A DNA stretch of 64,000 nt from Candidatus Latescibacterota bacterium (GCA_965237675.1 OZ250150.1:4896001-4960000); one strand, 5' to 3'. Positions 3 to 52,859 are shown, counted from the first letter of the stretch. Notes: generated from the letters alone by a model not told the origin. Translations and numbers: made by a program.

Positions 3-1685
3 GCCCATTTCGGGTCTGTCACGTCGGTGGCATTTTCGCCGGATGGGATGACGGTGGCAAGCGTCGGTTATACGAATCAGGTGAGGTTGTGGGACGTGGC
101 CACCGGGCAGGAAAAACACGCCCTGGAAGGACATACCCGCAGGCTCTGGTCGGTAGCGTTTTCGCCGGACGGGACGACGCTTGCAAGCGCCAGTGAAGAC
201 AGTACCGTGCGGTTGTGGGACGTGGCCACTGTGCAGGAAAAACACATCCTGACAGGACATACGCGGACCGTCACGTCGGTGGCGTTTTCGCCGGATGGTC
301 AGACCCTGGCAAGTGCCAGCTCGGACAGTACGGTGCGGTTGTGGGACGTGGCTACCGGGCAGGAAAAACACACCCTCACAGGACATCTCCAAAGGGTCTA
401 TTCGGTGGCGTTTTCGCCGGATGGGAGGACGCTGGCAAGCGCCAGTCGTGACCGTACTGTGCGGTTGTGGGACGTGGCCACGGGGCACGAAAAAAGCACC
501 CTCACAGGACATAGCGGGAGTGTCAATTCGGTGGCGTTCTCGCCGGATGGTCAGACCCTGGCCACCGGCAGTTACGACGAGACGGTGCGAGTGTGGGACG
601 TGGACACTGGGCAGGAAAAAGTCACCATCACAGGACATACGCCTTATGTCCTGCAGGTGGCGTTTTCGCCGGATGGGACGACGGTGGCAGGCGCCTATAA
701 TGACAGTACGGTACGGTTGTGGGACGTGGACACGGGGCAGAAAACAAGCACAATCACAGGAGATATTCGTGGGCTCAGGTCGGTAGCGTTTTCGCCGGAT
801 GGTCAGACCCTGGCCACCGGCAGTGGTGATGTGCGGTTGTGGGACGCGGCCACTGGGCAGGAAATAGGCGCCCTTACAGGACATGAGCGGACTGTCGAGT
901 CGGTAGTGTTTTCGCCGGATGGATCGACGCTGGCAAGCGGCAGTTACGACAAAACGGTGCGGTTGTGGGACGAGGCCACAGGCCAGGAAAAACACACCCT
1001 CACGGGACATACCGATGGGGTCAGGTCGGTGGCGTTTTCGCCGGATGGATCGACGCTGGCAAGCGGCAGTTACGACAAAACGGTGCGGTTGTGGGACGTG
1101 GCCACAGGGCAGGAAAAACACACCCTCACAGGACACTCCGCTGGGGTTTATTCGGTGGCGTTTTCGCCGGATGGGAGGACGCTGGCAAGCGCCAGTCGTG
1201 ACCGCACGGTGCGGGTGTGGGACGTGGCCACAGGGCAGGAAAAACACACCCTCACAGGACATGACAGGTTTGTCGAGTCGGTGGCGTTCTCGCCGGATGG
1301 CAGGACGCTGGTAAGTGGCAGCCCCTACAACAAAATGCTGGTGTGGGACGCCGCCACGTGGGAGGAAAAAGGCACCCTGATTGGACATACGTGGATTCTC
1401 ACGTCGGTGGCGTTTTCGCCGGACGGGATGACCCTGGCCAGCGGCAGTTACGACGGTACGATTCTACTGTGGGATATGTCGCCATATGTCGCACCTCAAC
1501 CCCTTACTGCGGACTTCGACGGCGACGGGACCGTGGGCTTTCCCGACTTTCTGCAATTCGCGGCGCAGGTCGGGCTGCGCCAGAGCGATGCCGGGTATGA
1601 CGCGCGCTTCGACCTAGACGGTGACGGCGCCGTCGAATTCAGCGACTTTCTCATCTTCGCGCGCAGCTTCGGCCAGGGTTCATGA
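3..1685 (+). CDS. WD40 repeat beta-propeller protein with C-terminal dockerin/EF-hand-like module (5' end outside window)
   Basis: Frame is open from position 3 (AHFGSVTSVAFSPDG). About 12 GH...SVAFSPDG...LWD repeats, then DFDGDGTVGFPDF...DLDGDGAVEFSDF. Confidence 0.93.
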   Translation, partial: AHFGSVTSVAFSPDGMTVASVGYTNQVRLWDVATGQEKHALEGHTRRLWSVAFSPDGTTLASASEDSTVRLWDVATVQEKHILTGHTRTVTSVAFSPDGQTLASASSDSTVRLWDVATGQEKHTLTGHLQRVYSVAFSPDGRTLASASRDRTVRLWDVATGHEKSTLTGHSGSVNSVAFSPDGQTLATGSYDETVRVWDVDTGQEKVTITGHTPYVLQVAFSPDGTTVAGAYNDSTVRLWDVDTGQKTSTITGDIRGLRSVAFSPDGQTLATGSGDVRLWDAATGQEIGALTGHERTVESVVFSPDGSTLASGSYDKTVRLWDEATGQEKHTLTGHTDGVRSVAFSPDGSTLASGSYDKTVRLWDVATGQEKHTLTGHSAGVYSVAFSPDGRTLASASRDRTVRVWDVATGQEKHTLTGHDRFVESVAFSPDGRTLVSGSPYNKMLVWDAATWEEKGTLIGHTWILTSVAFSPDGMTLASGSYDGTILLWDMSPYVAPQPLTADFDGDGTVGFPDFLQFAAQVGLRQSDAGYDARFDLDGDGAVEFSDFLIFARSFGQGS

Positions 1686-1975
1686 GGCCAACACGCCCTT
1701 TCTGAAAGAAATCGCGCCAGGCGATCGGCTTCACAATGGGTTTAGGGCGTTCACAGACCGGTCCGCGTTTGGAAAGGAGGAGGTATTGGAATCCATATCG
1801 TTAGACGTCAGGCCGTTGAATGTCTACTTGCGGACAATGATCGGCCGCAAGATTGGTTAACGCCGGTCACGGACCTGTTCACATTCGGGAAGGAGGTGAT
1901 ATTGGAAGCCATGTCGTTAAGTGTCTGGCCGCAGTACATCTACGTGAGAAACTACGGCCCGGGGCAAGTGCTGAT
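1686..1975 (+). repeat. Intergenic repeat copy 1 (near-identical to 4232-4520; shorter versions at ~9834-10005 and ~13413-13530)
   Basis: Direct comparison: ggccaacacgccctttctgaaag...ggggcaagtgctga recurs after the second WD40 gene with only a few substitutions. Confidence 0.9.
1786..1860 (+). CDS. Putative small peptide (24 aa, MESISLDVRPLNVYLRTMIGRKIG); same peptide encoded at 4332-4406
   Basis: AAGGAGG 5 nt before a TTG start; homologous to the adjacent sORF. Confidence 0.35.
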   Translation: MESISLDVRPLNVYLRTMIGRKIG

Positions 1976-2167: not shown

Positions 2168-4231
2168 ATGAAAAAGCTCACGATTTTGAGCCTCATTCTT
2201 CTTTTGACGACGGTCTTGTTTGCACAGTACGCCCACGCACAGGATTACCTTCGCTGGGGGCTGCCCGAAGGGGCCCTCGTGAGGCTGGGCAAGGGAGACG
2301 TCCGCGCCGTGGCCTGGTCGCCGGACGGCACGCGCCTGGCCGTGGGGGGCACCGTCGGCATCTGGCTATACGATGCCCGCACCGGGGTCGAAGTTTCTCT
2401 GATCACGGGCCATACGAGGAGAGTCAATACGATGGTGTTTTCGCCGGACGGGACCACACTGGCAAGCGCCGGTCACGACGGCACGGCACGGTTGTGGGAC
2501 GTGGCCACCGGACAGGAAATAGGCAGTTTCACAGGACATACGAAGAATGTCAATTCGGTGGCGTTTTCGCCGAATGGGACGACACTGGCAACCGGCGGTT
2601 ATACGGGTAACTTGCCTCCGGTGCGGCTGTGGGACGTGGCCACCGGACAGGAAATAGGCAGTTTCACAGGACATACGAAGAATGTCAATTCGGTGGCGTT
2701 CTCTCCGGACGGAACTGCGCTGGCAAGCGCCAGTAGTGACAATACAGTCCGGTTGTGGGACGTCGCTGCCGGACAGGAGAAACACACACTGACTGGGCAT
2801 ACCCGTGCGGTCAGACAGGTGACGTTTTCACCGGATGGGACCACGCTGGCAAGCGCCAGTCAGGACAGTACGGCGCGGCTGTGGGACGTGGCCACCGGGC
2901 AGGAGAAACACACCCTCACAGGACATACGTCCAGCGTCTATTGGGTGGTGTATTCACCGGATGGGACCACGCTGGCAAGCGCCAGTCTTGACAAAACCGT
3001 GCGCCTTTGGGACGTAGCCGCCGGGCAGGAAAACGTCACCATCACTGGACATACCGGTCAGGTCTATTCGGTGGTGTATTCACCGGACGGGAACACGCTG
3101 GCAAGCGCCAGTCTTGACAAGACTGTGCGGCTGTGGGACGTGGACACCGGGGAGGAAAAACACACCCTCACAGGACATACGTCCAGCGTCAGGTCGGTTG
3201 TGTATTCGCCGGACGGGACCACGCTGGCCAGCCGCAGTGGCGACAATACGGTGCGGTTGTGGGACGTGGCCACGGGACAGGAAAAAGTAAACATCACAGG
3301 ATATACGCCTTATGTCCTGTCGGTCGTGTTTTCACCCGATGGGACTACGCTGGCCAGCGCCAATAACGATGGTACGGTACCGTTGTGGGACGTGGCGAAA
3401 GGACAGATAAAAAGCACACTCGGAGGGGACGTCAGTAGGCTCAGGTCGGTGGCGTTTTCGCCCGATGGGACTATGCTGGCAAGCGGCGGTAGTGATGTGC
3501 GGCTATGGGACGTGGCCACGGGGCAGGAAATAAGCATCCTTACAGGACATACGCGGAATGTCTTGTCGGTGGCGTTTTCGCCGGATGGGACCACGCTGGC
3601 AACCGGCAGCGATGACGATACGGTGCGGTTATGGGACGTGGCCCCGGGGCAGGAAAAATACACCCTTACAGGACATACCAATGGGGTCTATGCCGTTGCG
3701 TTTTCGCCGGATGGGATGACAGTGGCAAGCGGCAGTCGTGACAATACGGTGCGGTTGTGGAACGTGACCACAGGGCACGAAAAAATCACCCTCACAGTCT
3801 CAGAACATACCAACTGGGTCGAGTCGGTGGCGTTTTCGCCGGATGGCAGGACGCTGGTAGGCGGCAGCCCCTACAACAAAATGCTGCTGTGGGTCGTGGC
3901 CACGGGTCAGGAAATAGGCACATTGACAGGACATACATGGTATCTCGTGACGTTGGCGTTTTCGCCGGACGGGATGACCCTGGCCAGCGGCAGTTACGAC
4001 GGCACGATTCTGCTGTGGGATATGTCACCTTATGTTACAACTCAACCCCTTGCTAGCGACTTCGACGGCGACGGGACCGTGGGTTTTCCCGATTTTCTGC
4101 AATTCGCGGCGCAGGTCGGGCTGAGCCAGGGAGACGCCGGGTTTGACGCGCGGTTCGATCTGAACGGCGACGGAACCGTCGAGTTCGGCGATTTTGTGAT
4201 CTTTGCACGCAGCTTCGGCCAGGGTTCATGA
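2168..4231 (+). CDS. Secreted WD40 repeat protein with C-terminal dockerin-like module
   Basis: Signal peptide (..AHA|QD), WGLPEGA..RLGKG motif, ~14 WD40 repeats, duplicated DFDGDG/DLNGDG loops. Confidence 0.95.
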   Translation: MKKLTILSLILLLTTVLFAQYAHAQDYLRWGLPEGALVRLGKGDVRAVAWSPDGTRLAVGGTVGIWLYDARTGVEVSLITGHTRRVNTMVFSPDGTTLASAGHDGTARLWDVATGQEIGSFTGHTKNVNSVAFSPNGTTLATGGYTGNLPPVRLWDVATGQEIGSFTGHTKNVNSVAFSPDGTALASASSDNTVRLWDVAAGQEKHTLTGHTRAVRQVTFSPDGTTLASASQDSTARLWDVATGQEKHTLTGHTSSVYWVVYSPDGTTLASASLDKTVRLWDVAAGQENVTITGHTGQVYSVVYSPDGNTLASASLDKTVRLWDVDTGEEKHTLTGHTSSVRSVVYSPDGTTLASRSGDNTVRLWDVATGQEKVNITGYTPYVLSVVFSPDGTTLASANNDGTVPLWDVAKGQIKSTLGGDVSRLRSVAFSPDGTMLASGGSDVRLWDVATGQEISILTGHTRNVLSVAFSPDGTTLATGSDDDTVRLWDVAPGQEKYTLTGHTNGVYAVAFSPDGMTVASGSRDNTVRLWNVTTGHEKITLTVSEHTNWVESVAFSPDGRTLVGGSPYNKMLLWVVATGQEIGTLTGHTWYLVTLAFSPDGMTLASGSYDGTILLWDMSPYVTTQPLASDFDGDGTVGFPDFLQFAAQVGLSQGDAGFDARFDLNGDGTVEFGDFVIFARSFGQGS

Positions 4232-4712: not shown

Positions 4713-5939
4713 ATGAAAAGGTTAACGTTTTCGAGCCTAATTCTTCTCATTGTTTCATTCTTATTTGCACAGAACAGCCACGCGCAGGACTACAATCGCT
4801 GGAGCTTGCCCGAAGGCGCCCGCATGCGTCTGGGCAAAGGAAACGTGCGCGACGTGGCCTGGTCGCCGGACCGCGCGCTCCTGGCCGCGGGGGGCACCGC
4901 CGGCATCTGGCTCTACGATGCCAGTACAGGAGCGGAAGTTTCCTTGATCACTGGACATTCGTTCAGGGTCAATGCCGTTGCATTTTCGCCCGACGGTATG
5001 ACGCTGGCAAGTGGCAGCCGGGACGATACGGTGCGGTTGTGGGATGTGGCCACCGGGAAGGAAAAAAGCATCCTCACGGGACACACCTACGATGTCGAGG
5101 CGGTGGCATTCTCGCTGGATGGGACGACGCTGGCAAGCGGCAGTCGCGACGGTACGGTGCGGCTGTGGGACGTGGCCACCGGACAGGAAATAGGCAGTTT
5201 CACAGGACATACGAAGAATGTCAATTCGGTGGCGTTCTCTCCGGACGGAACTGCGCTGGCAAGCGCCAGTAGTGACAATACAGTCCGGTTGTGGGACGTC
5301 GCTGCCGGACAGGAGAAACACACACTGACTGGGCATACCCGTGCGGTCAGACAGGTGACGTTTTCACCGGATGGGACCACGCTGGCAAGCGCCAGTCAGG
5401 ACAGTACGGCGCGGCTGTGGGACGTGGCCACCGGGCAGGAGAAACACACCCTCACAGGACATACGTCCAGCGTCTATTGGGTGGTGTATTCACCGGATGG
5501 GACGACGCTGGCAAGCGCCAGTCTTGACAAAACCGTGCGGCTGTGGAACGTGGCCGCCGGGCAGGAAAACGTCACCATCACTGGACATGCCGGTCAGGTC
5601 TATTCGGTGGTGTATTCACCGGACGGGAACACGCTGGCAAGCGCCAGTCTTGACAAGACTGTGCGGCTGTGGGACGCGGACACCGGGGAGGAAAAACACA
5701 CCCTCACAGGACATACGTCCAGCGTCAGGTCGGTTGTGTATTCGCCGGACGGGACCACGCTGGCCAGCCGCAGTGGCGACAATACGGTGCGGTTGTGGGA
5801 CGTGGCCACGGGACAGGAAAAAGTAAACATCACAGGATATACGCCTTATGTCCTGTCGGTCGTGTTTTCACCCGATGGGACTACGCTGGCCAGCGCCAAT
5901 AACGATGGTACGGTACCGTTGCCCTACGTGCCAATATAG
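4713..5939 (+). pseudogene. Secreted WD40 protein truncated by IS3; C-terminal repeats and dockerin missing
   Basis: Near-identical to the 2168 gene up to 5921 (..NNDGTVPL), then reads into the IS end (PYVPI*). Confidence 0.85.
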
Positions 5940-7658: not shown

Positions 7659-9833
7659 ATGAATAGGTCAACGATTTTGAGCCTCACACTTATTTTGACG
7701 GCTGTCTTGTCTTCACAGGACAGCCGCGCACAGGATTACACACGCTTGGGACTGCCCCACGGGGCCCTCATGCGCCTGGGTAAAGGAGAATCACGCCTGG
7801 TGGCCTGGTCGCGGGACGGCACGCGACTGGCGGTTGGGGGCACCATTGGCATCTGGGTTTACGATACCGAAACCGGGGCCGAGGTTTCCCTGCTCACGGG
7901 TCATAGATCTGGCGTGGTATCTATGGCGTTATCGCCGGATGGGACGATCCTGGCAAGCGCCAGTGGCGACTATACGGTGCGGTTGTGGGACGTGGCCACG
8001 TGGGAGGGAAAAAGCACCTTGACAGGACATACCCATCGGGTCAATTCGGTTGCATTTTCGCCCGATGGCACGACGCTGGCAAGCGCCAGTTGGGACAAAA
8101 CGGTGCGGCTGTGGGACATGGCCACAGGGCACGAGAAAAACACCCTCACAGGACATACGGGCATTGTCAATTCGGTGGCGTTTTCGCCCGATGGTCTCAC
8201 GCTGGCAAGTGGCAGTCGGGACGAAACGGTGCGGCTATGGGACGCGGCCACAGGGCACGAGAAAAACACCCTCACAGGACATGCGTCGTCTGTCACGTCC
8301 GTGGTGTTTTCGCCGGATGGGAAGACACTGGCCGGCGCCAGTGGTGATCGTACGGTGCGGTTGTGGGACGTGTCCACGGGCGAGCAAAAAGGCGCCGTGA
8401 CAGAACAAAACTGGTGGCCCGGATCGGTGGCGTTTTCGCCGGATGGGACGATGCTGGCCAGCGGCGGTTACGACAATACGGTGCGATTGTGGGACGTGGC
8501 AACAGGGCAAGTCGATCACACCCTCAAAGGACATACGGCGACAGTCAGGTCGGTAGCGTTTTCGCCGGATGGGACGATGCTGGCCAGTGGCAGTTCGGAC
8601 AATACGGTGCGGTTGTGGGACGCGGCCACGCAAAAGGAAAAAAACACCCTGACAGGACATTCGGGGACGATCAGGACGATAGCGTTTTCGCCGGACGGGA
8701 CATCGCTGGCAAGTGCCAGTTGGGACTATACGGCGCGGTTGTGGGACGTGGCTACCGGGCAGGCAAAAACCACCCTGACAGGACATTCCAGTTTTACAAG
8801 GTCGGTAGCGTTTTCGCCGGACGGGAAAACGCTGGCCAGCGGCGATTCTGACAATACGGCGCGGTTGTGGGACGTGGCCACAGGGCACGTAAAACGCACT
8901 TTCACAGGATATACCCGCGATGTCAGTTCGGTAGCGTTTTCGCCGGATGGGACCACGCTGGCCGGCGGCAGCTGGGACGGGACTGTACGGTTGTGGGACG
9001 AGGCCACAGGCCAGGTAAAACACACCCTCACAGGACATACCCGCGGGGTCGAGTCGGTGGCGTTTTCGCCGGATGGGACGACGCTGGCCAGCGGAGGTGC
9101 GGACGAGACGGTGCGGTTGTGGGACGTAGCTACGGGGCAGGAGCAAGGCACCTTGACAGGACATTTCGGTTGGGTCCTTTCGGTAGCGTTTTCACCGGAT
9201 GGGACGACACTGGCAAGCGCCAGTCGGGACGAAACCGTCCGGTTGTGGGACGTGGCTACCGGGCAGGAAAAAAGCACCCTGACAGGACATTCCAGTTTTA
9301 CCAGGTCGGTAGCGTTTTCGCCGGATGGGACCACGCTGGCGAGCTCCAGTCAGGACAGTACGGTGCGGTTGTGGAACGTGGCTACCGGGCAGGAAGAAAA
9401 CATCCTCACAGGACATACAGATTGGGTCTTTTCGGTGGTGTTTTCGCCGGATGGGACGACGCTGGCCAGCAGCAGCTGGGACGGTACGGTTCGGTTGTGG
9501 AACGCGGACACGGGGAGGGGAAAAAACACCTTCACGGCGCATACATATTGGGTCCCAACGGTTGCGTTTTCGCCGGATGGAAGCGCGCTGGCAAGCGGCG
9601 GCAGCGCGATTTTATTATGGGATGTCTCACCGTATGTCGCGCCTCAATCCCTTGTTGCCGACTTCGACGGCGACGGCACTGTGGGTTTCCCCGACTTCCT
9701 GCAGTTTGCGTCGCAGTTCGGGCAGAGCCAGGGTGACGCCGGATTTGACGCGCGTTTCGATCTGGACAGCGACGGCACCGTCGGGTTCAACGATTTCGTG
9801 ATCTTCGCACGCAGCTTCGGCCGGGGTACGTGA
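7659..9833 (+). CDS. Secreted WD40 repeat protein with C-terminal dockerin-like module
   Basis: Signal peptide, LGLPHGA..RLGKG, ~15 WD40 repeats, DFDGDG/DLDSDG tail. Confidence 0.95.
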   Translation: MNRSTILSLTLILTAVLSSQDSRAQDYTRLGLPHGALMRLGKGESRLVAWSRDGTRLAVGGTIGIWVYDTETGAEVSLLTGHRSGVVSMALSPDGTILASASGDYTVRLWDVATWEGKSTLTGHTHRVNSVAFSPDGTTLASASWDKTVRLWDMATGHEKNTLTGHTGIVNSVAFSPDGLTLASGSRDETVRLWDAATGHEKNTLTGHASSVTSVVFSPDGKTLAGASGDRTVRLWDVSTGEQKGAVTEQNWWPGSVAFSPDGTMLASGGYDNTVRLWDVATGQVDHTLKGHTATVRSVAFSPDGTMLASGSSDNTVRLWDAATQKEKNTLTGHSGTIRTIAFSPDGTSLASASWDYTARLWDVATGQAKTTLTGHSSFTRSVAFSPDGKTLASGDSDNTARLWDVATGHVKRTFTGYTRDVSSVAFSPDGTTLAGGSWDGTVRLWDEATGQVKHTLTGHTRGVESVAFSPDGTTLASGGADETVRLWDVATGQEQGTLTGHFGWVLSVAFSPDGTTLASASRDETVRLWDVATGQEKSTLTGHSSFTRSVAFSPDGTTLASSSQDSTVRLWNVATGQEENILTGHTDWVFSVVFSPDGTTLASSSWDGTVRLWNADTGRGKNTFTAHTYWVPTVAFSPDGSALASGGSAILLWDVSPYVAPQSLVADFDGDGTVGFPDFLQFASQFGQSQGDAGFDARFDLDSDGTVGFNDFVIFARSFGRGT

Positions 9834-10199: not shown

Positions 10200-12248
10200 A
10201 TGATCAAGTTAACGTTTTCGAGCCTCATGCTCTTTTTTACGACTGTCTTGTTTGCACAGAACATCCGCGCACAGGACTACAATCGCTGGAGCTTGCCCGA
10301 AGGAGCGCTCGTGCGGCTGGGCAAAGGAGACGTGCGCGACGTCACCTGGTCGCAGGACGGCACGCGCCTGGCCGTGGGGGGCACCGCCGGCATCTGGCTC
10401 TACGATGCCCAGACAGGTGATGAAATTTCGCTGCTCACAGGCCATACGAGAAGAGTCAATCATGTGGTGTATTCGACGGATGGGTCGATGCTGGCCAGCG
10501 CCGGTCACGATGGTACCATGCGGTTGTGGGACGCGGCCACCGGACAGGAAAAAAGCACCATCGAAGCCCATCGCGGGTCTGTCACGTCGGTGGCGTTTTC
10601 ACCGGATGGAACGACGGTGGCAAGCGTCGGTTATACGAACGAGGTGCGGTTGTGGGACGTGGCCACAGGGCAGGAGAAAAGCACTCTGAGCGGGCATACC
10701 CGGAGGCTCAGGTCGGTGGTGTTCTCGCCGGATGGGACGACATTGGCAAGCGCCAGTGAAGACAGTACGGCGCGGCTGTGGGACGTGGCCACAGGGCAGG
10801 CAAAACACACCCTGACGGGACATAGGTGGTTTGTCAATTCTGTGGCGTTTTCGCCGGATGGGACGACATTGGCAAGCGCCAGCAATGACAGTACGGTGCG
10901 GTTGTGGGACGTGGCCACAGGGCAGGTAAGACACACCCTCACAGGACATCCCCATTGGGTCCGTTCGGTGGTGTTTTCGCCCGACGGGACCACGCTGGCA
11001 AGCGGCAGTACAGACCGTACGGTGTGGTTGTGGGATATGGCCACCCGACAGAAGAAAGGCATCCTCACAGGCCACACAGGTGGGGTCATCTCGGTGGCGT
11101 TTTCGCCGGATGGGATGACCCTGGCAAGCGGCAGCTCGGACAATACGGTGCGGGTGTGGGACGTCGCAACGGGGCAGGAAAAAGGCACTATCACGGGACA
11201 CACGCCTTTTGTCTGGTCGGTGGCGTTTTCGCCGGATGGGACCACGGTGGCAGGCGCCAATAGCGACGGTACGATACGACTGTGGGACGTGACCACCTGG
11301 CAGAAAAAAAGCACACTCGGAGGGGACATGCGCAGGCTCAGGTCGGTGGCGTTTTCGCCCGATGGGACGATGCTGGCAAGCGGCGGCACTGATGTGCGGT
11401 TGTGGGACGTGGCGACGGGGGAGGGAAAAAGCACTCTCACAGGACATACCCGTGCTGTCGGTTCGGTGGTGTTTTCGCCGGATGGGACCACCCTGGCAAG
11501 CGGCAGTGATGATGATACGGTGCGGTTGTGGGACGTGGCCACAGGGCAGGTAAAACGCGCCCTGACAGGACATACCCATGATGTCAGGTCGGTGGCGTTT
11601 TCGCCGGATGGGACCACCCTGGCAAGCGGCAGTTACGACCACACGGTGCGGTTGTGGGACGTGGCCACCGGACAGGAACAAAGCACCCTCACAGGACATA
11701 CGTCCTGGGTCACTTCCGTGGTGTTTTCGCCGGATGGGATGACAGTGGCAAGCGGCAGTCGTGACAATACGGTGCGGTTGTGGAACGTGACCACAGGGCG
11801 GGAAAAACACACCCTCACAGGACATGAGCGGAATGTCGAGTCGGTGGCGTTCTCACCTGATGGGAGAACGCTGGTAAGCGCCAGTCACGACAACAAAATG
11901 CTGCTTTGGGACGTGGACACCTGGCAGGAAATAGGCGTTCTTACAGGACATACGTGGATAATCGCTTCGGTGGCGTTCTCGCCGGATGGGCAGATCCTGG
12001 CAAGCTGCAGTTACGACGGCACGATTCTACTGTGGAATGTCTCCCCGTATGTCGCACCTCAATCCCTTGTTGCCGACTTCGACGGCGACGGGACCGTGGG
12101 TTTTCCCGACTTCTTGCAGTTTGCGTCGCAGTTCGGTCAGAGCCAGGACGACGCCGGATTTGACGCGCGCTTCGATCTGGACAGCGACGGCACCGTCGGG
12201 TTCAACGATTTCGTGATCTTCACACGCAGCTTCGGCAACGGTACGTGA
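10200..12248 (+). CDS. Secreted WD40 repeat protein with C-terminal dockerin-like module
   Basis: Signal peptide and ~14 WD40 repeats; tail nearly identical to that of the 7659 gene. Confidence 0.95.
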   Translation: MIKLTFSSLMLFFTTVLFAQNIRAQDYNRWSLPEGALVRLGKGDVRDVTWSQDGTRLAVGGTAGIWLYDAQTGDEISLLTGHTRRVNHVVYSTDGSMLASAGHDGTMRLWDAATGQEKSTIEAHRGSVTSVAFSPDGTTVASVGYTNEVRLWDVATGQEKSTLSGHTRRLRSVVFSPDGTTLASASEDSTARLWDVATGQAKHTLTGHRWFVNSVAFSPDGTTLASASNDSTVRLWDVATGQVRHTLTGHPHWVRSVVFSPDGTTLASGSTDRTVWLWDMATRQKKGILTGHTGGVISVAFSPDGMTLASGSSDNTVRVWDVATGQEKGTITGHTPFVWSVAFSPDGTTVAGANSDGTIRLWDVTTWQKKSTLGGDMRRLRSVAFSPDGTMLASGGTDVRLWDVATGEGKSTLTGHTRAVGSVVFSPDGTTLASGSDDDTVRLWDVATGQVKRALTGHTHDVRSVAFSPDGTTLASGSYDHTVRLWDVATGQEQSTLTGHTSWVTSVVFSPDGMTVASGSRDNTVRLWNVTTGREKHTLTGHERNVESVAFSPDGRTLVSASHDNKMLLWDVDTWQEIGVLTGHTWIIASVAFSPDGQILASCSYDGTILLWNVSPYVAPQSLVADFDGDGTVGFPDFLQFASQFGQSQDDAGFDARFDLDSDGTVGFNDFVIFTRSFGNGT

Positions 12249-41738: not shown

Positions 41739-42548
41739 ATGTGGAACCGTGTTATTGCAACCGTGTGTGCGGCGTTCGTGTTGACCGGACCGTCGCTGGC
41801 AGCAGACATAACGCAAGGATTGACCATTAACGGCGGCCAGAACGTACTCGCGATGCTCAAGCTTGAGCGAGTGAACGATCCGGTCGCCGGCGACGGGATT
41901 CTAACCGTGCGTCTCTCGCTGTCCCACGCCAGGGACCTGAAGGGATACGGCCTGACGCTGCAGTACGATCCCGCGAAATATGAGTTTCTGGAAGCCAGTG
42001 AACCCGACGGAAACCTGCTCAAGGCGAATTCCGATCGTGAAACGCTGTTTCTGACGTCCAACCGGACGCCGGGCGAACTCAATCTCGGCGCAGTGAGAGT
42101 CGACGGGCAGGGCGCCAGCGGCGAAGGTACGCTGGTTGAACTGGTTTTCAAGGGAAGCGGGACGCCGTCGGCATCCGATTTTCAGGTCTCGGAGAGCGTG
42201 CTGGTAGGCGTGGACGGCGCTCTCGACCTGCTGGCCCGCGTTGAAATCGGAGATCTGAACCCCCTGCCGGATCAATACGGTCTCAACCGGAACATGCCCA
42301 ATCCGTTCAACCCCTCCACCACAATCGGCTATCAGCTTCCCGAGGCGGGGCGGGTCAGGCTGGCCGTCTACAATATGCTGGGACAGGAGGTGCGCGTCCT
42401 GGTGGACGACAGGAAAGCGGCCGGATCGTTCACGGCCACGTGGGACGGCACGGACCATTTGGGCCGGCGCACGGCCAGCGGTATCTATCTCTATCGGATA
42501 CAGGTGGGCAGTTTTTCGGATACCCGGCGCATGTTACTGTTGAAATAG
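41739..42548 (+). CDS. Secreted cohesin-like domain protein with FlgD-Ig/T9SS type-A-like C-terminal sorting domain
   Basis: Signal peptide; VRLSLSHARDLKGYGLTLQYDPAKYEF..GNLL..PGELNLG..SGEGTLVELVFK (cohesin pattern); NMPNPFNPSTTIGY..YNMLGQEV..ASGIYLYRI..MLLLK. Confidence 0.85.
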   Translation: MWNRVIATVCAAFVLTGPSLAADITQGLTINGGQNVLAMLKLERVNDPVAGDGILTVRLSLSHARDLKGYGLTLQYDPAKYEFLEASEPDGNLLKANSDRETLFLTSNRTPGELNLGAVRVDGQGASGEGTLVELVFKGSGTPSASDFQVSESVLVGVDGALDLLARVEIGDLNPLPDQYGLNRNMPNPFNPSTTIGYQLPEAGRVRLAVYNMLGQEVRVLVDDRKAAGSFTATWDGTDHLGRRTASGIYLYRIQVGSFSDTRRMLLLK

Positions 42549-44400: not shown

Positions 44401-46593
44401 ATGAAAAGGTTCACGTCGTTCAGCTTAATCCCATTCTTGATGGGCGTCCTGTTGGTGCAGGAAAGCCGCGCCGAGGAATTTACGCGCTCAAATTTGCCCG
44501 AAGGTGCCATCGCCCGCCTAGGAAAATCCGCCGCCTACCAGAGAATGGCCTATTCTCCAGACGGCAGAAAGCTAGCAGCGGGCACAAGCATCGGGATCTG
44601 GCTATATGATTTGAATACCTATGAAGTAGTCGCCCTACTCCCTGGTAGGCCTATTTCGTTTTCGCCAGATGGAAAGACGCTGGTCAGTGGAAGTAGGGAC
44701 GGAATCCTTCGATTGTGGGACGTCGATACAGGACAAGAAAAATCCACCCTTATTGGCCATGCAGACTATGTGACGACCATATCATTTTCGCCAGACGGTC
44801 TGACGCTGGCCAGTGGGAGTGAAGACGATAGGGTCCGCTTGTGGGATGTGGAAACTGGGAAGGAAAAGGCGGTCCTGAAAGGCCATTGGGACGGTGTCAG
44901 CTGGGTGTTGTTTTCACCTGATGGAAAGACGCTGGTTAGTGGCAGCGGTGCACGGGAAGATATGATTCGTGTTTGGAATGTAGGCACCGGCCAGGAAGTA
45001 GCCATCCTTGGTGGGTCTGGCGTCCGTGGTACGGATGTGGCGAGGTTTTCGTCTGACGGAAAGACCCTAGCTGTTGCACGCGAGGACAGCACGATTCTTC
45101 TATGGGACGTGGCCACGGGGCAAGGGAAGGCCACTCTTGAAGGCCATACGGATGAGGTCTGGCGGCTATCGATTTCGCCGGATGGTGAGACACTTGCCAG
45201 TGGCAGTAGGGACGGCGTCATCTTGTTGTGGGACATGGTCACCGGGCGACAAAAAGCCACGCTGGAAGGCCATACGTCAGGGATCCTTGCGTTGTCGTTT
45301 TCCCCGGATGGAATGAGCCTGGCCAGTGGGGGATATGACCCGACCATTCTGTTGTGGGACGTGGGCACTGGGCATGATAAGGCCATGCTTGAAGGCCATA
45401 CGGTTACGATCTGGCGGCTATCGTTTTCGCCGGATGGTGAAACCCTTGCCAGTTCTGCTGAGGACGGGGTCCGTTTGTGGGATGTGGCCAGCGGTCAGGA
45501 AAAGACCACCCTTCTTGACCCTTGGGATGCCTATGCGGTGGCTTTCTCTCCGGATGGAACAACTCTAGCCAGTGGCAGTTGGGGTGAAAAAAAACCGATT
45601 CGTTTGTGGGATGTGGCCAGCGGCCGAGAGAAGGCCACCCCCGAAGACCATTTGCGGAATCGGAGGATAAGTATCTTTTCGCTGGCGTATTCTCCAGATG
45701 GCCTGACCCTGGCTGGTGGCAACCCGGGGTGGCCGATTTACCTGTGGGATGTGACCACCGGCCAAATAGAGGCCTCATTTTCCCATCGAAACCCTCCTCG
45801 TTCGCTGTCATTTTCCCCGGATGGTTTGACCCTGGCCAGTGGAGGAGGGTACAACTTGCGTTTGTGGGACGTTTCCAGCGGGAAGGAGAAAGCCAACCTT
45901 GAAGGCCACACAGATAGGGTCACTTCCGTGTCTTTTTCTCCGGTTGGTCTGACGCTGGCCAGTGGCAGTAAGGACAACACGGTTGTGTTGTGGGATGCGG
46001 GGAGCAGTCAGCAGATGGCCGTCCTCCAAGGCCATACGGATCAAGTAAATTCAGTGTCATTTTCGCCGGATGGAAAAACGCTGGCTAGTGCAGGCGATTA
46101 TCCGAACGATACAGTTGTTCGATTGTGGGATGTCGAAAGCCGTCAGGAAAAGTCGGTTCTTGAAGGCCATTTGGGGTCTGTCCTTTCCGTGTCGTTTTCA
46201 CCGGATGGTCGAACACTGGCCAGTGGCAGTGCGGACCGTACTATTCGGTTGTGGGACATGGCCACGGGTCAGGAGATGCACACACTCACAGGACATGCGG
46301 GAAGGGTTCATTCGGTGACGTTTTCGCCGGATGGTGAAACCCTTGCCAGTGTCAGTGGTGACGGGACGATTCTGCTGTGGGATATGTCGCCGTATGTGAC
46401 CTACCAGGCTCCCAGTCCCGACTTCGACGGCGACGGGGCCGTCGGGTTTTCCGACTTTCTGCAATTCGCGGCGAACTTCGGGCTGAGCCAGGGCGACGCT
46501 GGGTATGACGCACGGTTCGATCTGGACGGCGACGGATCCGTCGGGTTCAGCGATTTTCTGATCTTTGCCGGCAGCTTCGGCCAGGGTGCGTGA
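44401..46593 (+). CDS. Secreted WD40 repeat protein (more diverged repeats) with C-terminal dockerin-like module
   Basis: Signal peptide, LPEGAIARLGK, ~14 WD40 repeats, DFDGDG/DLDGDG tail. Confidence 0.95.
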   Translation: MKRFTSFSLIPFLMGVLLVQESRAEEFTRSNLPEGAIARLGKSAAYQRMAYSPDGRKLAAGTSIGIWLYDLNTYEVVALLPGRPISFSPDGKTLVSGSRDGILRLWDVDTGQEKSTLIGHADYVTTISFSPDGLTLASGSEDDRVRLWDVETGKEKAVLKGHWDGVSWVLFSPDGKTLVSGSGAREDMIRVWNVGTGQEVAILGGSGVRGTDVARFSSDGKTLAVAREDSTILLWDVATGQGKATLEGHTDEVWRLSISPDGETLASGSRDGVILLWDMVTGRQKATLEGHTSGILALSFSPDGMSLASGGYDPTILLWDVGTGHDKAMLEGHTVTIWRLSFSPDGETLASSAEDGVRLWDVASGQEKTTLLDPWDAYAVAFSPDGTTLASGSWGEKKPIRLWDVASGREKATPEDHLRNRRISIFSLAYSPDGLTLAGGNPGWPIYLWDVTTGQIEASFSHRNPPRSLSFSPDGLTLASGGGYNLRLWDVSSGKEKANLEGHTDRVTSVSFSPVGLTLASGSKDNTVVLWDAGSSQQMAVLQGHTDQVNSVSFSPDGKTLASAGDYPNDTVVRLWDVESRQEKSVLEGHLGSVLSVSFSPDGRTLASGSADRTIRLWDMATGQEMHTLTGHAGRVHSVTFSPDGETLASVSGDGTILLWDMSPYVTYQAPSPDFDGDGAVGFSDFLQFAANFGLSQGDAGYDARFDLDGDGSVGFSDFLIFAGSFGQGA

Positions 46594-48833: not shown

Positions 48834-48976
48834 GATGTACATCGGGCCTCTTCATATCGCCATTACGCTCCTTTCATGCCAATCCAAAAATTACATCGGT
48901 GACAGTCTCTTGATGCGGTTTAACCACAGTTAGTCACGATAATTATAGCCAATCACGATCCAGGGAGGATATCCGG
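48834..48976 (+). promoter_or_regulatory. Conserved leader copy 9
   Basis: gatgtacatc...cagtctcttgatgcggtttaaccacagt...cagggaggatatccgg-ATG. Confidence 0.6.
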
Positions 48977-49408
48977 ATGAGCCAGAACTCCAAGTTGTTC
49001 CTCATGACCTTGCTGTTGGCCGGCGTCCTGATGGCGCAGGACAGCCGCAGTAGGGACCGTACCGTGCGGTTGTGGGACGTGCACACCGGCAACGCTATAA
49101 CAACCCTTGTAGGACATACGTCTTCGGTCAACTCGGTGGTGTTTTCGCCGGATGGAAAAACGCTGGCCAGTGGCAGCGGGGACGATACGATTCTGTTGTG
49201 GGACATGTTGCCCTACGTCACACCTCAAACTCCCGATGCCGACTTCGGCGGCGATGGTACCGTGGGTTTCGCCGACTTTCTACAATTCGCGGCACAGTTC
49301 GGGCTGAGCCAGGGAGACGCGGGGTATGACGTCCGGTTCGATCTGGACGGCGCCGTCGGGTTCAGCGATTTCCTGATCTTTGCCGGCAGCTTCGGAGAGT
49401 GTGCGTGA
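48977..49408 (+). pseudogene. Internally deleted mini WD40 gene (signal peptide, ~1.5 repeats, degenerate dockerin)
   Basis: The signal peptide joins directly to RDRTVRLWD. Dockerin loops are damaged (DFGGDG; DLDG-AVGF). Confidence 0.75.
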
Positions 49409-49544: not shown

Positions 49545-52500
49545 ATGTCTGCCAATAAAGGATTGACGTGTATCGCGGCCCTCGCGCTGCTGGCATTCGT
49601 ATGTCATGCCGCTACGGGTTCCAACACGGACGATTCGGCCGCGACAACGCAAGTGATCACCGCCGGTTCTAATGACGACAACGCGCCGCTTCCCGACTTC
49701 GACGGCGACGGCACGGTCGGTTTTGGCGATTTCGTAAAGTTTTCGGCTAAATTCGGCCTGAATGAGGGGGATGACGGTTATCAGGCGCAGTACGATCTGA
49801 ACGGCGACGGCGAAATCGGGTTCGCGGACTTTGTGATCTTTGCGCAACACTTCGGCAAAGAGGCGCCTTCACCTGTTCTCTCGATTCCCGACGCCAACCT
49901 GCGGGCGGTAATTGCGGGCAGTCTTGGCAAGGCGAGCGGTGCGTCAATCACTCAGGCGGAGATGGCAACCTTAACGGCCCTTGCGGCGCCGAACGAGAAT
50001 ATCAGCGATCTGACCGGGCTTGAGTTTGCTACAAACCTGAGAGCGTTGAACCTCGGTTCAGTTTTCGAGCCACATAGGGGTGTTATTAACAGCAATCGGA
50101 TATCCAACGTCGCGCCGCTTTCCGGTCTGAACAGCCTGACGTCGCTGAATCTTAGCAGCAACAATATCTCGGACATTTCCGCACTTTCCGGTCTGAACAG
50201 CCTGACGTCGCTGAATCTTAGCAGCAACAATATCTCGGACATTTCCGCACTTTCCGGTCTGAACAGCCTGACGTCGCTGAATCTTGACAACAACAACATC
50301 TCGGATATTTCAGCACTTTCCGGCCTGACCAGCCTGACGTCGCTGTTGCTTGACCTCAACAACATTGCGGATCTTGGGCCTCTGACGGCAAACCCGGGAC
50401 TGGGCAAGGGAGATTATGTTCGCTTAGAGCAAAACCCTCTCAACAGCGTATCCTTAAGTACGCACGTGAGTACACTTCGGGCAAGGGAGATCCGTGTAGC
50501 CATAACGTCAGTGTCTATTCAATCGTTTGAGGTGAGCGATGACAGCCTGACGGCCGGGCAGTCGTTCACGCTGGAGACAACGGTACGCAACCACGGGGAT
50601 GATCCATTTGGTGAAAGGCTATATTATTACCGCTCGAACGACGCCACGATCGACAGTTCCGACGTGAATATCTATATTGATTTTAACTCGATAGACAGAC
50701 TGGAAGCCTTGGCCACCCGGACGGTGTCGGTTGATCTGAGAGCCCCGCCGTATGAGGGCACGTACTACTACGTGGTCTGCATCGGCGGTGATCGGCGGAT
50801 GTGCTCCTCCGGCGTTCGCGTGGCGGTCGACGGCAATCTGGGCGGCACACCGGATCTGGAGGTCAGGTCTGTATCTGTCAGCCATGGGAGCGTATCGCCC
50901 GGCACTCCGGTGACATTCTACATGGAGGTTTGGAATATAGGTACAGGTCCAGCCGCCGGGACGGTATACAGCTGGTACCTATCAGACGACGCGATCATCG
51001 ACGCCGACGACAAGACACTATTGACCTATCCCATCCGTCCAGGGGGTCTACTCTCGGTCACGAGTAAACAGGCTAGTTCGAGATATACTTCTTGGACGCC
51101 GTTAGAGCCAGGCACGTACTACTACGGGATTTGCGTGCGGCCCACTCTTGGCGAGACCAATACGGAAAACAATTGCTCCACTGGCGTACCCGTCGTTGTG
51201 GAAGACCGGGAAGGGAGCCCCGACCTGATCGTCGTATCGCCTGCGATCCTCGATCACAAGCCAGCGGCTGGGAAGTTCCGCCTGTGGGCGACGGTGCGGA
51301 ACACAGGATCCAGGCCATCCACCGCGACGGTGTTACGCTACTATCTCTCGCACGACGCAACCATCGACCGCAACGACATTCAAGTCCGCATCGATGGCGT
51401 AATCTCACTCGCTGTTGACGGGTCCTCAGGATATCCCGCCGTTTACCATCCGTATACTTCGCATCATTTCGTGACAGCGCCCACGAGTCCAGGCACGTAC
51501 TACTACGGCGCCTGCGTCGACCCCGTACCCGACGAGAGCGATTCGAACAACAACTGTTCGGAGGCGGTGCCTATGAACGTTGGGGTCCCGGACCTGGCCG
51601 TCGCCTTGCCTGTGGTCAGCACGAGCGTACCGCTGGCGGGACAGTCGTTCGCACTGACGGCGACCGTGAGAAACCAGGGCCCCAACGCAGCCGGTTCAAC
51701 GACGCTTCGTTACTACCGCTCGGACGACGCGGCCATCGACGCCGCCGACACGCCGGTCGGCACGGTCGCTGTCAGCAGCCTTACGGGCTGCGACGGCCTG
51801 GTCAGCGGACCCGGCAGCCGCCTTGCCGCCTCCGGTACTCGTCGGCAGTCCATTAGTGTGAGTGCGCCTTCCAGCCCGGGAACGTACTACTATGGCGCCT
51901 GCGTCGATGGCGTCTCCGGGGAGGCCAATGCGGACAACAACTGCTCCACCGGCGTATATGTCCGGGTCGTCTCTGCCGGGCAGGACCCTTTCAACATCGA
52001 ACTCGTCTTCGTCAGCGACTTCACCGACGCCCGCAAGGACGTGATGCGGCAAGCGGCCAGGCATTGGGAGACCATCATTTCAGAAGGCCCGCCGGCTGTA
52101 GACTTTTCGTCCAATACCCACAGTCTCAGTTTTAGGGATACGACAATTGTCGTTGGCGATTCGGTGGACGACCTGCGGATCTTCATCTACAAACATCCTA
52201 TTATGCCTTTGGGAGCCGGGGGGCCGACCTATGTGCGGTCAGGCAATCCGACAGGCCTGCCGGCCGTAGGCCGTGTATGGATAGGCTCGCCAGGCCTTGA
52301 CCGCTTTCAGGCTACAGAGCCACTTTGGATCGAAGAGCGCCTCCTGCGGGACCTGATGCTCCACGAGACAGCACATGTTTTGGGATTCGGGACGCTGTGG
52401 GAGGCGTTGGGCTTGCGCCAGGACACGCCGGGCGACGCACACTTCAGCGGTGAGCTGGCCATTCAGGCGTTCAATGCCGCAGGCGGCGAGGACTACAGCG

Positions 52501-52859
52501 GGAGCAAGGTTCCCGTGGAATATGAAGGCCCGTTTACGGCGTGTTCGGGACCCGCTCATTGGAGGCCTGAAGTGTTTCGGGGCAACGCGCGCGAATTTGG
52601 GGCCGAAATAATGGAATCGACGATCGAGAGGGAGCACAGACTCAGTGCCATCACCATCCAGTCCGTCGCAGACCTCGGCTACGTCGTGGATGTCAGTCGG
52701 GCCGATCCGTATAAGCTCCCCGCATCGATTGGCGCCGCGCAGCCCCGCCCGTCAAGCGCCAAGCCTGTCGCCAGCCTTGCCTTCGATCTGGAAGTGCTTG
52801 GACCGATCTACGTAGGGGATGAGCAGGGGCGCATCAGCCACACCATATTCAGCGACTGA
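49545..52859 (+). CDS. Secreted protein: N-terminal dockerin-like module, internalin-type LRR, ~4 CARDB-like domains, leishmanolysin (M8)-like metallopeptidase
   Basis: AAGGAGG before ATG 49545; IPDANLR cap and 22-aa LRRs; repeated TVRN.G..YY.S.DA.ID..GTYYYG.C; HETAHVLGF..AHW..EIM..SAITIQSVADLGY. Confidence 0.9.
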   Translation: MSANKGLTCIAALALLAFVCHAATGSNTDDSAATTQVITAGSNDDNAPLPDFDGDGTVGFGDFVKFSAKFGLNEGDDGYQAQYDLNGDGEIGFADFVIFAQHFGKEAPSPVLSIPDANLRAVIAGSLGKASGASITQAEMATLTALAAPNENISDLTGLEFATNLRALNLGSVFEPHRGVINSNRISNVAPLSGLNSLTSLNLSSNNISDISALSGLNSLTSLNLSSNNISDISALSGLNSLTSLNLDNNNISDISALSGLTSLTSLLLDLNNIADLGPLTANPGLGKGDYVRLEQNPLNSVSLSTHVSTLRAREIRVAITSVSIQSFEVSDDSLTAGQSFTLETTVRNHGDDPFGERLYYYRSNDATIDSSDVNIYIDFNSIDRLEALATRTVSVDLRAPPYEGTYYYVVCIGGDRRMCSSGVRVAVDGNLGGTPDLEVRSVSVSHGSVSPGTPVTFYMEVWNIGTGPAAGTVYSWYLSDDAIIDADDKTLLTYPIRPGGLLSVTSKQASSRYTSWTPLEPGTYYYGICVRPTLGETNTENNCSTGVPVVVEDREGSPDLIVVSPAILDHKPAAGKFRLWATVRNTGSRPSTATVLRYYLSHDATIDRNDIQVRIDGVISLAVDGSSGYPAVYHPYTSHHFVTAPTSPGTYYYGACVDPVPDESDSNNNCSEAVPMNVGVPDLAVALPVVSTSVPLAGQSFALTATVRNQGPNAAGSTTLRYYRSDDAAIDAADTPVGTVAVSSLTGCDGLVSGPGSRLAASGTRRQSISVSAPSSPGTYYYGACVDGVSGEANADNNCSTGVYVRVVSAGQDPFNIELVFVSDFTDARKDVMRQAARHWETIISEGPPAVDFSSNTHSLSFRDTTIVVGDSVDDLRIFIYKHPIMPLGAGGPTYVRSGNPTGLPAVGRVWIGSPGLDRFQATEPLWIEERLLRDLMLHETAHVLGFGTLWEALGLRQDTPGDAHFSGELAIQAFNAAGGEDYSGSKVPVEYEGPFTACSGPAHWRPEVFRGNAREFGAEIMESTIEREHRLSAITIQSVADLGYVVDVSRADPYKLPASIGAAQPRPSSAKPVASLAFDLEVLGPIYVGDEQGRISHTIFSD

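Follow-up and report, generated by a model that had tools for sequence, protein, structure and literature searches.

A putative non-cellulosomal cohesin-dockerin surface display system anchored through type IX secretion in Candidatus Latescibacterota

Background

The anchoring of clostridial cellulosomes (type II pairs, PDB 2B59, 4U3S, 2Y3N, 5K39) uses the same pair of modules as the locus described here, namely a dockerin with duplicated F-hand and a cohesin of beta-sandwich type, and it provides the solved chains best matched by both of our models. The two systems also share an excess of dockerin proteins over few cohesins and the placement of the cohesin on a cell-surface anchor, which in our case is a predicted one. 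They differ in that the present host is a diderm with a type IX secretion system (T9SS) tail as anchor, whereas SLH or sortase serves in the clostridial case. Moreover, the anchors here are single-cohesin proteins of 269 aa instead of long scaffoldins, no X-module was seen, and the cargo consists mostly of non-catalytic repeats (41/106 WD40; 3/58 further proteins carbohydrate-active).

Cohesin and dockerin modules reportedly occur outside cellulosomes as well. The cohesins of Clostridium perfringens NagJ (PDB 2OZN/2JH2/2W1N) and Archaeoglobus fulgidus (2XDH) likewise stand outside cellulose degradation; they differ from the present case, where around 100 dockerins are found per genome, the partner has a T9SS tail and the cargo is made of eukaryote-like repeats. 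In Ca. Stygibacter (Cloacimonadota, FCB group), the parts of PMC8542988 drawn on here present a cellulosome-like complex inferred by bioinformatics only. As in our genome, signal-peptide proteins with C-terminal dockerins occur together with a cohesin protein bearing a conserved C-terminal surface-attachment domain. That protein, however, is a single 3755-aa scaffoldin with tandem cohesins and CBMs, and the cargo comprises enzymes (GH18, GH57, S8, C25), in contrast to our genome, where small anchors with one cohesin each are numerous and the cargo consists mostly of binding repeats. Sponge-symbiont Poribacteria (Kamke et al. 2014, PMC3909097) also export WD40/LRR proteins in abundance, again in connection with a tail of T9SS type. 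There, the TIGR04183 tail is reported to be located on the eukaryote-like repeat proteins themselves, WD40 proteins among them, and the secretion pathway remained to be revealed; in our case the tail is on a separate cohesin protein and the WD40/LRR proteins are tail-less. PMC3909097 mentions neither dockerin nor cohesin (0 occurrences of each word). Among the papers listed for cohesin-dockerin, type IX secretion, sponge symbionts, Latescibacteria and Gemmatimonadota, none was seen to describe WD40/LRR proteins tagged with a dockerin or a T9SS anchor with a single cohesin.

Results and discussion

Dockerin modules and their host genes

We analysed a stretch of 64,000 nt from Candidatus Latescibacterota bacterium (GCA_965237675.1 OZ250150.1:4896001-4960000), hereafter called the window; coordinates are window positions, and the window genes and gene remnants given below lie on the plus strand. 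A six-frame search of the window with the regular expression D-x-[DN]-x-[DNS]-G-x-[VIL]-x-[FLIV]-x-D-F yielded 19 Ca-binding loops, all on the plus strand and within genes named in a preliminary description of this DNA, which form nine pairs and one single loop at 41272-41310. In 200 shuffles of the window the mean was 0.005 loops and the maximum 1. The nine intact duplicated modules and three remnants of the preliminary description were recovered at their places by this search and by a profile built from the nine modules, and the reported Phe at loop positions 10, 13 and 16 was present in both loops of all nine.

Six modules are C-terminal in WD40 genes, as had been described. The first gene (3..1685; regex, domain models and profile) encodes a WD40 propeller protein whose 5' end lies outside the window, with its dockerin at 1485-1682. 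Four others encode a signal peptide followed by 13 WD40 repeats (2168..4231, dockerin 4031-4228), 14 repeats (7659..9833, dockerin 9633-9830), 13 repeats (10200..12248, dockerin 12048-12245) and 12 repeats (44401..46593, dockerin 46393-46590), and the sixth a 1499-aa protein with 26 repeats (16778..21277, dockerin 21077-21274). A truncated WD40 gene of the same family as its neighbours (4713..5939) lacks the dockerin and is followed by an IS3-type element (HTH_Tnp_1, rve; 6000-7477). As for the remnants, one comprises only the last helix, i.e. the last 17 profile positions, in decayed DNA (13356..13406). The second belongs to a WD40-dockerin pseudogene (39140..41343) split by an IS630-like element of 1.26 kb (39641-40900; 7 genome copies), and its dockerin is reduced to one fused loop-helix (41251-41343). 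The third is a nearly complete dockerin (49214-49399) with loop 2 two residues short, attached to a WD40 fragment (48914..49405). Two RNA libraries labelled sponge metagenome contained contigs about 97% identical to the window, over the IS630-like element and a MITE-like repeat only; they covered neither the cohesin gene nor most of the WD40 gene, cannot show absence and, since the covered parts are mobile repeats, give only a weak hint of habitat.

The remaining three modules had been called N-terminal. This was correct for two proteins in which the dockerin comes right after the signal peptide: 33643..38121 (dockerin 33769-33960, then LRRs and an M66-like zinc peptidase with HELGH at residue 1249) and 49545..52859 (dockerin 49668-49865, then LRR, 3 CARDB domains and a C-terminal region with HETAH at residue 940 and without family match). 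It was only loosely true for a 2465-aa LRR/GLUG protein (21399..28796), because a signal peptide and a 150-aa N-domain precede its dockerin pair at residues 177-241 (21924-22118). The N-domain had no Pfam match at E up to 10, and hhalign gave a probability of 0.7% for its being a cohesin-family relative, with no profile similarity. A language-model look-alike search pointed to cohesin-bearing clusters; the domain is possibly cohesin-like, which we regard as a lead only.

Several statements on the cargo had to be narrowed. Metalloproteases had been listed among it; the 33643 protein does match M66 (26-28 bits, cut-off 20.6) and is the only window cargo protein to reach a peptidase family cut-off, the 49545 protein having just the HExxH motif. 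The absence of glycosidases held for the window and failed elsewhere in the genome, where 3/58 further dockerin proteins are carbohydrate-active. That no window cargo gene carries a T9SS tail was borne out, the tail profile matching only the 41739 protein and a pseudogene for an LVIVD/PKD/fn3 protein with a T9SS type A tail (14281..16146, in-frame TAG at 15919-15921). Very weak matches of this profile were also seen in two intergenic stretches of the window.

A dockerin is expected to consist of two tandem segments of about 22 residues, each with a Ca-binding loop (D1, D/N3, D/N5, D12) and then a helix. Such segments are present in the window modules, and in an alignment of 28 modules D10, G15, D43 and D54 are invariant, as are F19, F22, F25, F55 and F58, with F52 in at least 90%. 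Sequence models were less decisive: when isolated, 2/9 window modules pass Dockerin_1 (PF00404, cut-off 22.9 bits) at 24.7 and 27.6 bits, the latter being the module of 21399-28796, and 7/9 score 17.6-22.7. The modules score higher on EF-hand_1, which 8/9 pass, and the NCBIfam model dockerin_GC stayed below its own cut-off in 4/4 modules tested. The AlphaFold2 (AF2) model of the module (pLDDT 90) has two helices, at 19-28 and 52-61, and ranks 1-15 of its Foldseek search were all dockerins. Ranks 1-10 had TMq 0.66-0.78, nine of them with rmsd 1.0-1.7 Å over 49-55 columns and the other, 2y3n_B, with 3.3 Å over 62 columns; ranks 11-15 were weaker (TMq 0.51-0.60, rmsd 4-5 Å). EF-hand proteins reached TM 0.2-0.3 (about 0.25) at about 10 Å. 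By their modelled fold, the window modules are dockerins, as the preliminary description had it, and not calmodulin-type EF-hand pairs.

A small cohesin protein with a type IX tail

The gene 41739..42548 had been described as a signal peptide, a cohesin-like domain and a FlgD/T9SS-type tail, and each of these parts was found again. Its 269-aa product is signal-peptide-like at the N-terminus by inspection, followed by the cohesin fold at residues ~30-176 (41826-42266), a linker and a T9SS type A tail at 42285-42545. The tail passes both FlgD_ig (33.3 bits, cut-off 27) and TIGR04183 (32.6 bits, cut-off 23; residues 187-266 of 269), and the protein thus has the make-up of type A cargo: a tail over cut-off, at the C-terminus, behind a signal peptide. 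The cohesin domain scored 20.1 bits with PF00963, below the cut-off of 24.1, while its paralogue C1 4145323 passes with 27.8 bits; among the homologues listed, 19/120 had a precomputed PF00963 match. At the level of sequence, the sole cohesin matches of the cohesin-family profile to solved structures were NagJ (E 0.03) and a scaffoldin adaptor (E 0.12). The AF2 model (pLDDT 77; 75-92 over blocks 31-170) was matched by cohesin chains in 44/49 of the top-ranked Foldseek hits listed, with TMt up to 0.73; the best included 2jh2 (0.73), 2xdh (0.68), 2w1n and the type II cohesins 2y3n, 1tyj and 4u3s. As modelled, then, the 41739 domain has a cohesin fold. Prediction of a complex of cohesin residues 30-178, dockerin and 2 Ca scored 0.05 against a mark of 0.32 in a single run without controls, a value that we count neither for nor against binding. 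No Rfam match was found in 38000-44500.

Genome-wide census

The system is genome-wide and order-wide and not a feature of the window alone. The count of both partners proposed in the preliminary description gave 106 dockerin frames (own profile; 41 are WD40) and about 14 cohesin modules, i.e. 10 Pfam matches (6 above cut-off) and four small paralogues detected by the family profile only. Dockerin_1 of Pfam had 81 matches in the genome, of which 31 were flagged above cut-off. The place of the module differs between proteins, being C-terminal in some and N-terminal or internal in others, which suits a role in binding more than one as a signal for sorting. Two sequence types can be distinguished, type A of the WD40/LRR proteins and type B of giant adhesins, which is 31-45% identical to it. 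T9SS-tailed loci numbered 15 by TIGR04183 and 16 by our own profile.

The small cohesin-tail protein has 6 paralogues in the genome. Eight further proteins have cohesin matches (five above the Pfam cut-off) and five or six of them also a dockerin; the larger carriers include Doc+Coh+tail proteins of 1468 and 1711 aa, a 1653-aa protein with two cohesins and WD40 proteins ending in Coh+Doc. In a cellulosome, dockerins would be found mainly on glycoside hydrolases or plant-cell-wall enzymes, and a scaffoldin would combine several cohesins with a CBM. Neither arrangement was seen here: 0/9 window cargo proteins are such enzymes, one GH5 and two heparinase II/III-like proteins make up the carbohydrate-active part of the 58 further proteins with a dockerin, and, by cohesin number, each carrier has one except the 1653-aa protein with two.

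We favour, with moderate confidence, a non-cellulosomal cohesin-dockerin surface display anchored through the T9SS, common to the order, with the window as one of its islands. In this reading, around 100 proteins per genome carry a dockerin of about 60 residues. They range from WD40, LRR, YWTD and other propellers through giant fn3/cadherin/Ig proteins resembling adhesins to a small number of peptidases and of enzymes active on polysaccharides, and they would leave the cytoplasm by ordinary Sec signal peptides. The small proteins with signal peptide, one cohesin and type A tail (six copies, one at 41739) would be sent through the type IX system, so that the outer membrane would display cohesin sockets to the outside. 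Once across that membrane, the tagged proteins would plug Ca-dependently into these sockets, as well as into the cohesins of larger proteins, of which about eight could act as receptors. We infer that binding modules which can be exchanged for one another would in this way coat the cell, most likely to hold on to host or particles; the result is probably an exchangeable binding coat and not a cellulose-degrading machine.

Export route

The type IX machinery that such anchoring calls for was recovered in part. SprA scored 615 bits in the own genome (cut-off 200) and was found in 51/51 genomes of the order. Among the other parts searched (PorU, PorV, GldK and GldM), the PorU-like (229 bits, cut-off 420), PorV-like (102+53, cut-off 250) and GldK-like (91, cut-off 350) matches all stayed below cut-off. 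GldM had no match with TIGR03517 or PF12081, which is uninformative since the controls were above cut-off in no reference genome. A secretin was found in 0/15 genomes of the own genus (own genome and 14/14 others, several single-contig), the control matching in 6/14 reference genomes; an exit of T2SS type was accordingly not found either. The cargo bears no export signals other than Sec signals, and the search yielded no cargo route across the outer membrane.

A related reading, which we consider rather unlikely, is that the small cohesin protein would meet folded dockerin cargo in the periplasm and that its own tail would carry the complex through SprA, i.e. export in trans. The dockerin would then tag cargo for secretion in a detachable manner, and the various cargo proteins would share the small cohesin as their adaptor for export, roles that we likewise find doubtful. 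The distribution of tails speaks for it, as the roughly 100 dockerin proteins have Sec signals and a T9SS tail on only 2/106, while over half of the few tailed proteins are cohesins (8/15 by TIGR04183, 9/16 by our own profile). So do the lack of secretin in the genus, SprA throughout the order and the cohesin genes located at operon-like distances behind giant dockerin proteins. However, a T9SS with a non-covalent passenger was not found in our literature search, and we know of no precedent for one. Furthermore, the size of the cargo (700-2400 aa) may be prohibitive, every cargo molecule would use up an adaptor molecule, 12/51 genomes of the order have a secretin yet keep the cohesin-dockerin system, and other exit routes or vesicles are possible.

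Gene order and distribution

Four of the six small cohesin genes lie within 0-384 bp of a dockerin frame (random placement, p = 0.0005 for at least 4/6), although dockerin genes are dense and clustered, so that some adjacency is due to chance; for the other 2/6 there is no dockerin gene within 58 kb. Two of the small cohesin genes follow genes for 2260-aa adhesin-like proteins with a C-terminal dockerin at a gap of at most 49 bp. Type A dockerin genes surround the window copy as well as C1 5582403, its closest paralogue, and cohesin copies beside each dockerin type are among each other's closest paralogues. At the best cohesin loci of 20 relatives, at least one dockerin frame was present within 10 kb in 12/20 (33 frames in 400 kb) and none in 8/20; a dockerin was directly adjacent in 8/20.

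One could also suppose that cohesins of the 41739 type are not the receptors of WD40/LRR tails, which would instead bind cohesins on larger proteins, the small ones serving only the neighbouring giant adhesins or other partners. We regard this as quite improbable. The eight further cohesin proteins agree with it, five of them being above the Pfam cut-off and the five or six with a dockerin allowing chains, as does the involvement of type B dockerins of giant adhesins in the tightest cohesin-dockerin gene pairs. It is at odds with the type A surroundings of the window copy and C1 5582403, and with the relatives, where in all 8/20 loci with direct adjacency the adjacent dockerins include one of type A (profile scores 64-92).

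Across genomes, searched with the cohesin domain alone, the small cohesin occurred in 48/48 sampled genomes of the order (18/18 in f1, 30/30 in f2), which had 21 to 41 scored dockerin matches each (about 40 candidates scored per genome); as the relatives' genomes are not independent, these counts overstate the support. It was present in 0/19 dockerin-negative genomes of the phylum sample. A wider locus search with the generic T9SS tail motif as one of two patterns was not used, since most of its 80 loci, from many FCB phyla, were tail-only. The cohesin gene family and the dockerin genes keep company, both in their order along the genome and in their distribution between genomes. That the duplicated loops instead bind Ca as stabilising or periplasmic modules and lack a partner cohesin, being linked to the cohesin just by clustering in variable islands, would suit the higher EF-hand scores, the IS elements and pseudogenes in which the islands are rich, and the many non-cellulosomal dockerins that are said to have no known partner, but we hold it to be highly improbable given a modelled fold matching dockerins at about 1 Å and not EF-hand pairs, co-occurrence in 48/48 genomes and adjacency above random placement.

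Conclusions

Uncultured bacteria associated with hosts are characterised by eukaryote-like WD40 and LRR proteins, and the display favoured here, a plug-and-socket arrangement with a dockerin plug common to about 2% of the genome's genes, offers a testable answer to how such proteins reach the surface and stay there. Cohesin-dockerin pairs, known from enzyme complexes, would gain a further use in coating a cell with binding modules, and their range would extend to a diderm that anchors them by a T9SS tail. The one-cohesin anchor and the two dockerin types could serve as surface-display parts in Bacteroidota-type hosts. If export in trans were true, a handful of adaptor genes would both export and display around 100 tail-less WD40, LRR, YWTD and adhesin proteins; no earlier such case would exist for the T9SS, and it would explain how eukaryote-like proteins exit from host-associated bacteria.

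Dockerin modules of the WD40 and LRR proteins

A cohesin-dockerin system extends over the whole genome, including this window, whose dockerins are found in a row of large genes on the plus strand. Six of these genes (3-1685, 2168-4231, 7659-9833, 10200-12248, 16778-21277 and 44401-46593) encode a Sec-type signal peptide, 12-26 WD40 repeats and a C-terminal tail of 66 residues. The same module occurs near the N-terminus of three LRR proteins encoded on this strand (21399-28796, 33643-38121 and 49545-52859). A regular expression for the Ca-loop detected 19 loops in the window, i.e. nine pairs and one single, all within WD40/LRR frames, as against a mean of 0.005 in 200 shuffles of the window. 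Three remnants (13356-13406, 41251-41343 and 49214-49399) were located by a profile built from the nine window modules, and loop positions 10, 13 and 16 were occupied by Phe in both loops of all nine. The preliminary description had listed nine intact duplicated Ca-loop modules, three remnants and this Phe pattern; regular expression, profile and alignment bear it out, and the observation was real and correctly recognised. Its placement of the 21399 module at the N-terminus holds only loosely: the module occupies residues 177-241, behind a domain of 150 residues. This domain (window 21399-21920, residues 25-178) of the LRR/GLUG protein, which is 2465 aa long, had no Pfam match and no profile match to the family of the small cohesin protein encoded at 41739. 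A protein-language-model search placed it beside clusters with PF00963 in 13-18% of members (scores 0.92-0.93), and the domain may be a further cohesin-like unit joined to the dockerin.

Judged by sequence alone, the dockerin identity of the module is borderline: Dockerin_1 scored 17.6-27.6 bits on the nine window modules against a cut-off of 22.9, which two of them passed, and EF-hand_1 was passed by eight. The alternative that the tails are stand-alone EF-hands was checked against the predicted fold. An AlphaFold2 model computed from 28 aligned modules (pLDDT 90) had dockerins as its best fifteen Foldseek matches in the PDB (15/15), with rmsd of 1.0-1.7 Å over 49-55 columns for nine of the top ten, whereas EF-hand proteins reached only TM ~0.25 at rmsd ~10 Å. 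As far as prediction can, the fold settles the module as a dockerin, as initially proposed.

A small cohesin protein with a T9SS tail

The gene at 41739-42548 (plus strand) encodes a signal peptide, a domain with a predicted cohesin fold (residues ~30-178) and a T9SS type A tail. On this protein, the Pfam Cohesin model reached 20.1 bits, below its cut-off of 24.1, while FlgD_ig (33.3, cut-off 27) and TIGR04183, the model for T9SS type A tails (32.6, cut-off 23), both passed, in agreement with the FlgD/T9SS-type tail seen at first reading. The family comprises at least 390 proteins, nearly all of 269 residues; some members are named 'T9SS type A sorting domain-containing protein' by NCBI, and the MAGs are labelled Latescibacteria or Gemmatimonadota. 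A cohesin model computed from 36 members (pLDDT 77) matched almost exclusively cohesins, including non-cellulosomal ones of Clostridium perfringens/Archaeoglobus and several of type II. The suspected cohesin fold is thus supported by the predicted structure, though the Pfam score is below cut-off.

Secretion machinery

SprA was detected in this genome (615 bits) and in 51/51 genomes of the order; PorU-, PorV- and GldK-like genes gave matches below the curated cut-offs. A search of the genome for GldM found none, with uninformative controls. Secretins occurred in 12 of the 51 genomes of the order, with none in this genome, 0/14 in other genomes of the genus and 0/20 in the largest sister genus. 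PorV-like and GldK-like (FGE-sulfatase type) genes at 1706205-1709006 and 5027678-5028154 of contig C1 of this genome lie 8-11 kb from the cohesin paralogues at C1 1695704 and 5035761; they could be diverged components of the T9SS that have stayed close to the proteins it exports. Other candidate T9SS genes are located at C1 5524163-5525107 and 5586881-5592733. The export signals of the cargo are of the Sec type only, and therefore a reading in which the cohesin-tail protein carries dockerin-tagged cargo through SprA is worth testing.

Genome-wide census

With our own profile, 106 dockerin frames were found in the 5.6-Mb genome; Pfam Dockerin_1 matched 81 times with E values no higher than 1, and 31 of these matches were flagged as exceeding the cut-off. 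WD40 proteins account for 41 of the 106 frames. We classed 58 further frames, all of at least 200 aa and outside the window; the three LRR genes of the window, described above, and seven short frames were set apart from this count. Seventeen were adhesin-like proteins with fn3, cadherin or Ig domains (four being giants of ~2300 aa) and 17 had no family, with LRR proteins (4), LDL-receptor YWTD propellers (4), other propellers (6), peptidases (two S8, one M10), carbohydrate-active proteins (one GH5, two heparinase II/III-like), one FGE-sulfatase-like protein, one temptin-like protein and two proteins combining dockerin, cohesin and tail making up the remainder.

Cohesins were scarce, with 10 Pfam matches genome-wide, six over the cut-off, and four small paralogues added by the family profile, so that 13 proteins hold ~14 modules in all. 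Equally scarce were T9SS tails, which numbered 15 by TIGR04183 and 16 loci by our own profile; cohesin proteins carried 8/15 and 9/16 of them, respectively, and only two of the 106 dockerin frames had such a tail. In three proteins, two with WD40 repeats and one of the fn3/cadherin kind (C1 3572386-3574830, 982070-985393 and 110073-112496), a dockerin comes immediately after a cohesin; both WD40 proteins end with this pair. Proteins of this kind could chain head to tail.

Linkage and distribution of cohesins and dockerins

In four of the six copies of the small cohesin gene, a dockerin frame lay at a distance of 0-384 bp (random placement: single-gene chance 0.07; at least four of six adjacent, p = 0.0005). 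Two of these four genes are located at most 49 bp behind 2260-aa adhesin-like genes, whose C-terminal dockerin differs in sequence type from that of the WD40/LRR proteins (31-45% identity); the 2262-aa protein at C1 1688870 carries an example of this second type. Cohesins that neighbour the same type of dockerin rank among one another's closest paralogues. The paralogue at C1 5582403 is flanked by a row of ~15 dockerin genes and a PorU-like gene. Among the best cohesin loci of 20 relatives, 12 had at least one dockerin frame no more than 10 kb away, with 33 frames counted across 400 kb, and eight had a directly adjacent dockerin gene.

The distribution was sampled in 151 genomes of the phylum, with ~40 dockerin candidates scored per genome. 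The small cohesin was present in all 48 genomes of the order's two families (1-10 matches per genome), each of which yielded between 21 and 41 scored dockerin matches, and in 0/19 dockerin-negative genomes of the sample. Related genomes are not independent; therefore, this co-occurrence is read as co-inheritance at the least.

Mobile elements and decayed genes

The island shows turnover. An IS3-type element (6000-7477) lies behind a shortened WD40 gene. Immediately ahead of the cohesin gene, a WD40-dockerin gene is split by a 1.26-kb IS630/Tc1-like element (39641-40900, minus strand; weak DDE_3 and HTH_32 matches), present in 7 genome copies at 99.9% identity. At C1 2707404 and 982070, two further copies lie directly against WD40-dockerin frames, and RNA-library contigs labelled as sponge metagenome cover the element at ~97% identity. 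A ~165-bp repeat with inverted ends (41562-41725), which precedes the start codon of the cohesin gene by 14 bp, looks MITE-like; blastn found ~150 matching places in the genome, and metagenome contig depth over it was 50- to 800-fold relative to the flanks.

The LVIVD/PKD/fn3 gene at 14281-16146 has an in-frame TAG (15919-15921) inside its T9SS tail, which is intact beyond this codon, and could represent a nonsense pseudogene or a case of read-through. Directly behind the WD40 gene at 10200-12248, a stop-broken frame at 12270-12400 resembles, by eye and beyond the reach of the tail profile, the linker and first residues of a cohesin-tail protein, including the motif LNPLPDQYG..N..NP that the 41739 protein also has; the frame is probably what remains of a second anchor gene. 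The tail profile also gave very weak matches (6-9 bits) at 38447-38554, directly behind the LRR-M66 gene, and at 43601-43711, directly behind the gene at 42984-43529; these could be decayed tails or chance. Beside the island, 60492-63044 encodes a eukaryote-like protein with TPRs and an animal haem peroxidase domain (An_peroxidase, 357 bits).

Comparison with known systems and proposed model

The system resembles a cellulosome in its anchoring end. However, its cargo is mostly non-catalytic and each of its anchors combines one cohesin with a T9SS tail; it is not a cellulosome. The nearest published inference found is a Cloacimonadota complex, in which a long scaffoldin with a tail is inferred to hold enzymes as cargo (PMC8542988). 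Kamke et al. 2014 (PMC3909097) described TIGR04183 tails on WD40 proteins of Poribacteria, with no mention of cohesin or dockerin. No description of the present arrangement was found in the literature searched.

The preliminary description interpreted the cohesin protein as an adaptor that exports or anchors dockerin-bearing cargo, which appears plausible in the light of the predicted folds and the comparative data. In our model, the small cohesin protein would be a T9SS substrate ending at the cell surface. Dockerin-tagged proteins would bind it in a Ca-dependent manner, as they would the cohesins of larger proteins, and those with both modules could link into chains. The outcome would probably be a surface coat of exchangeable binding modules.
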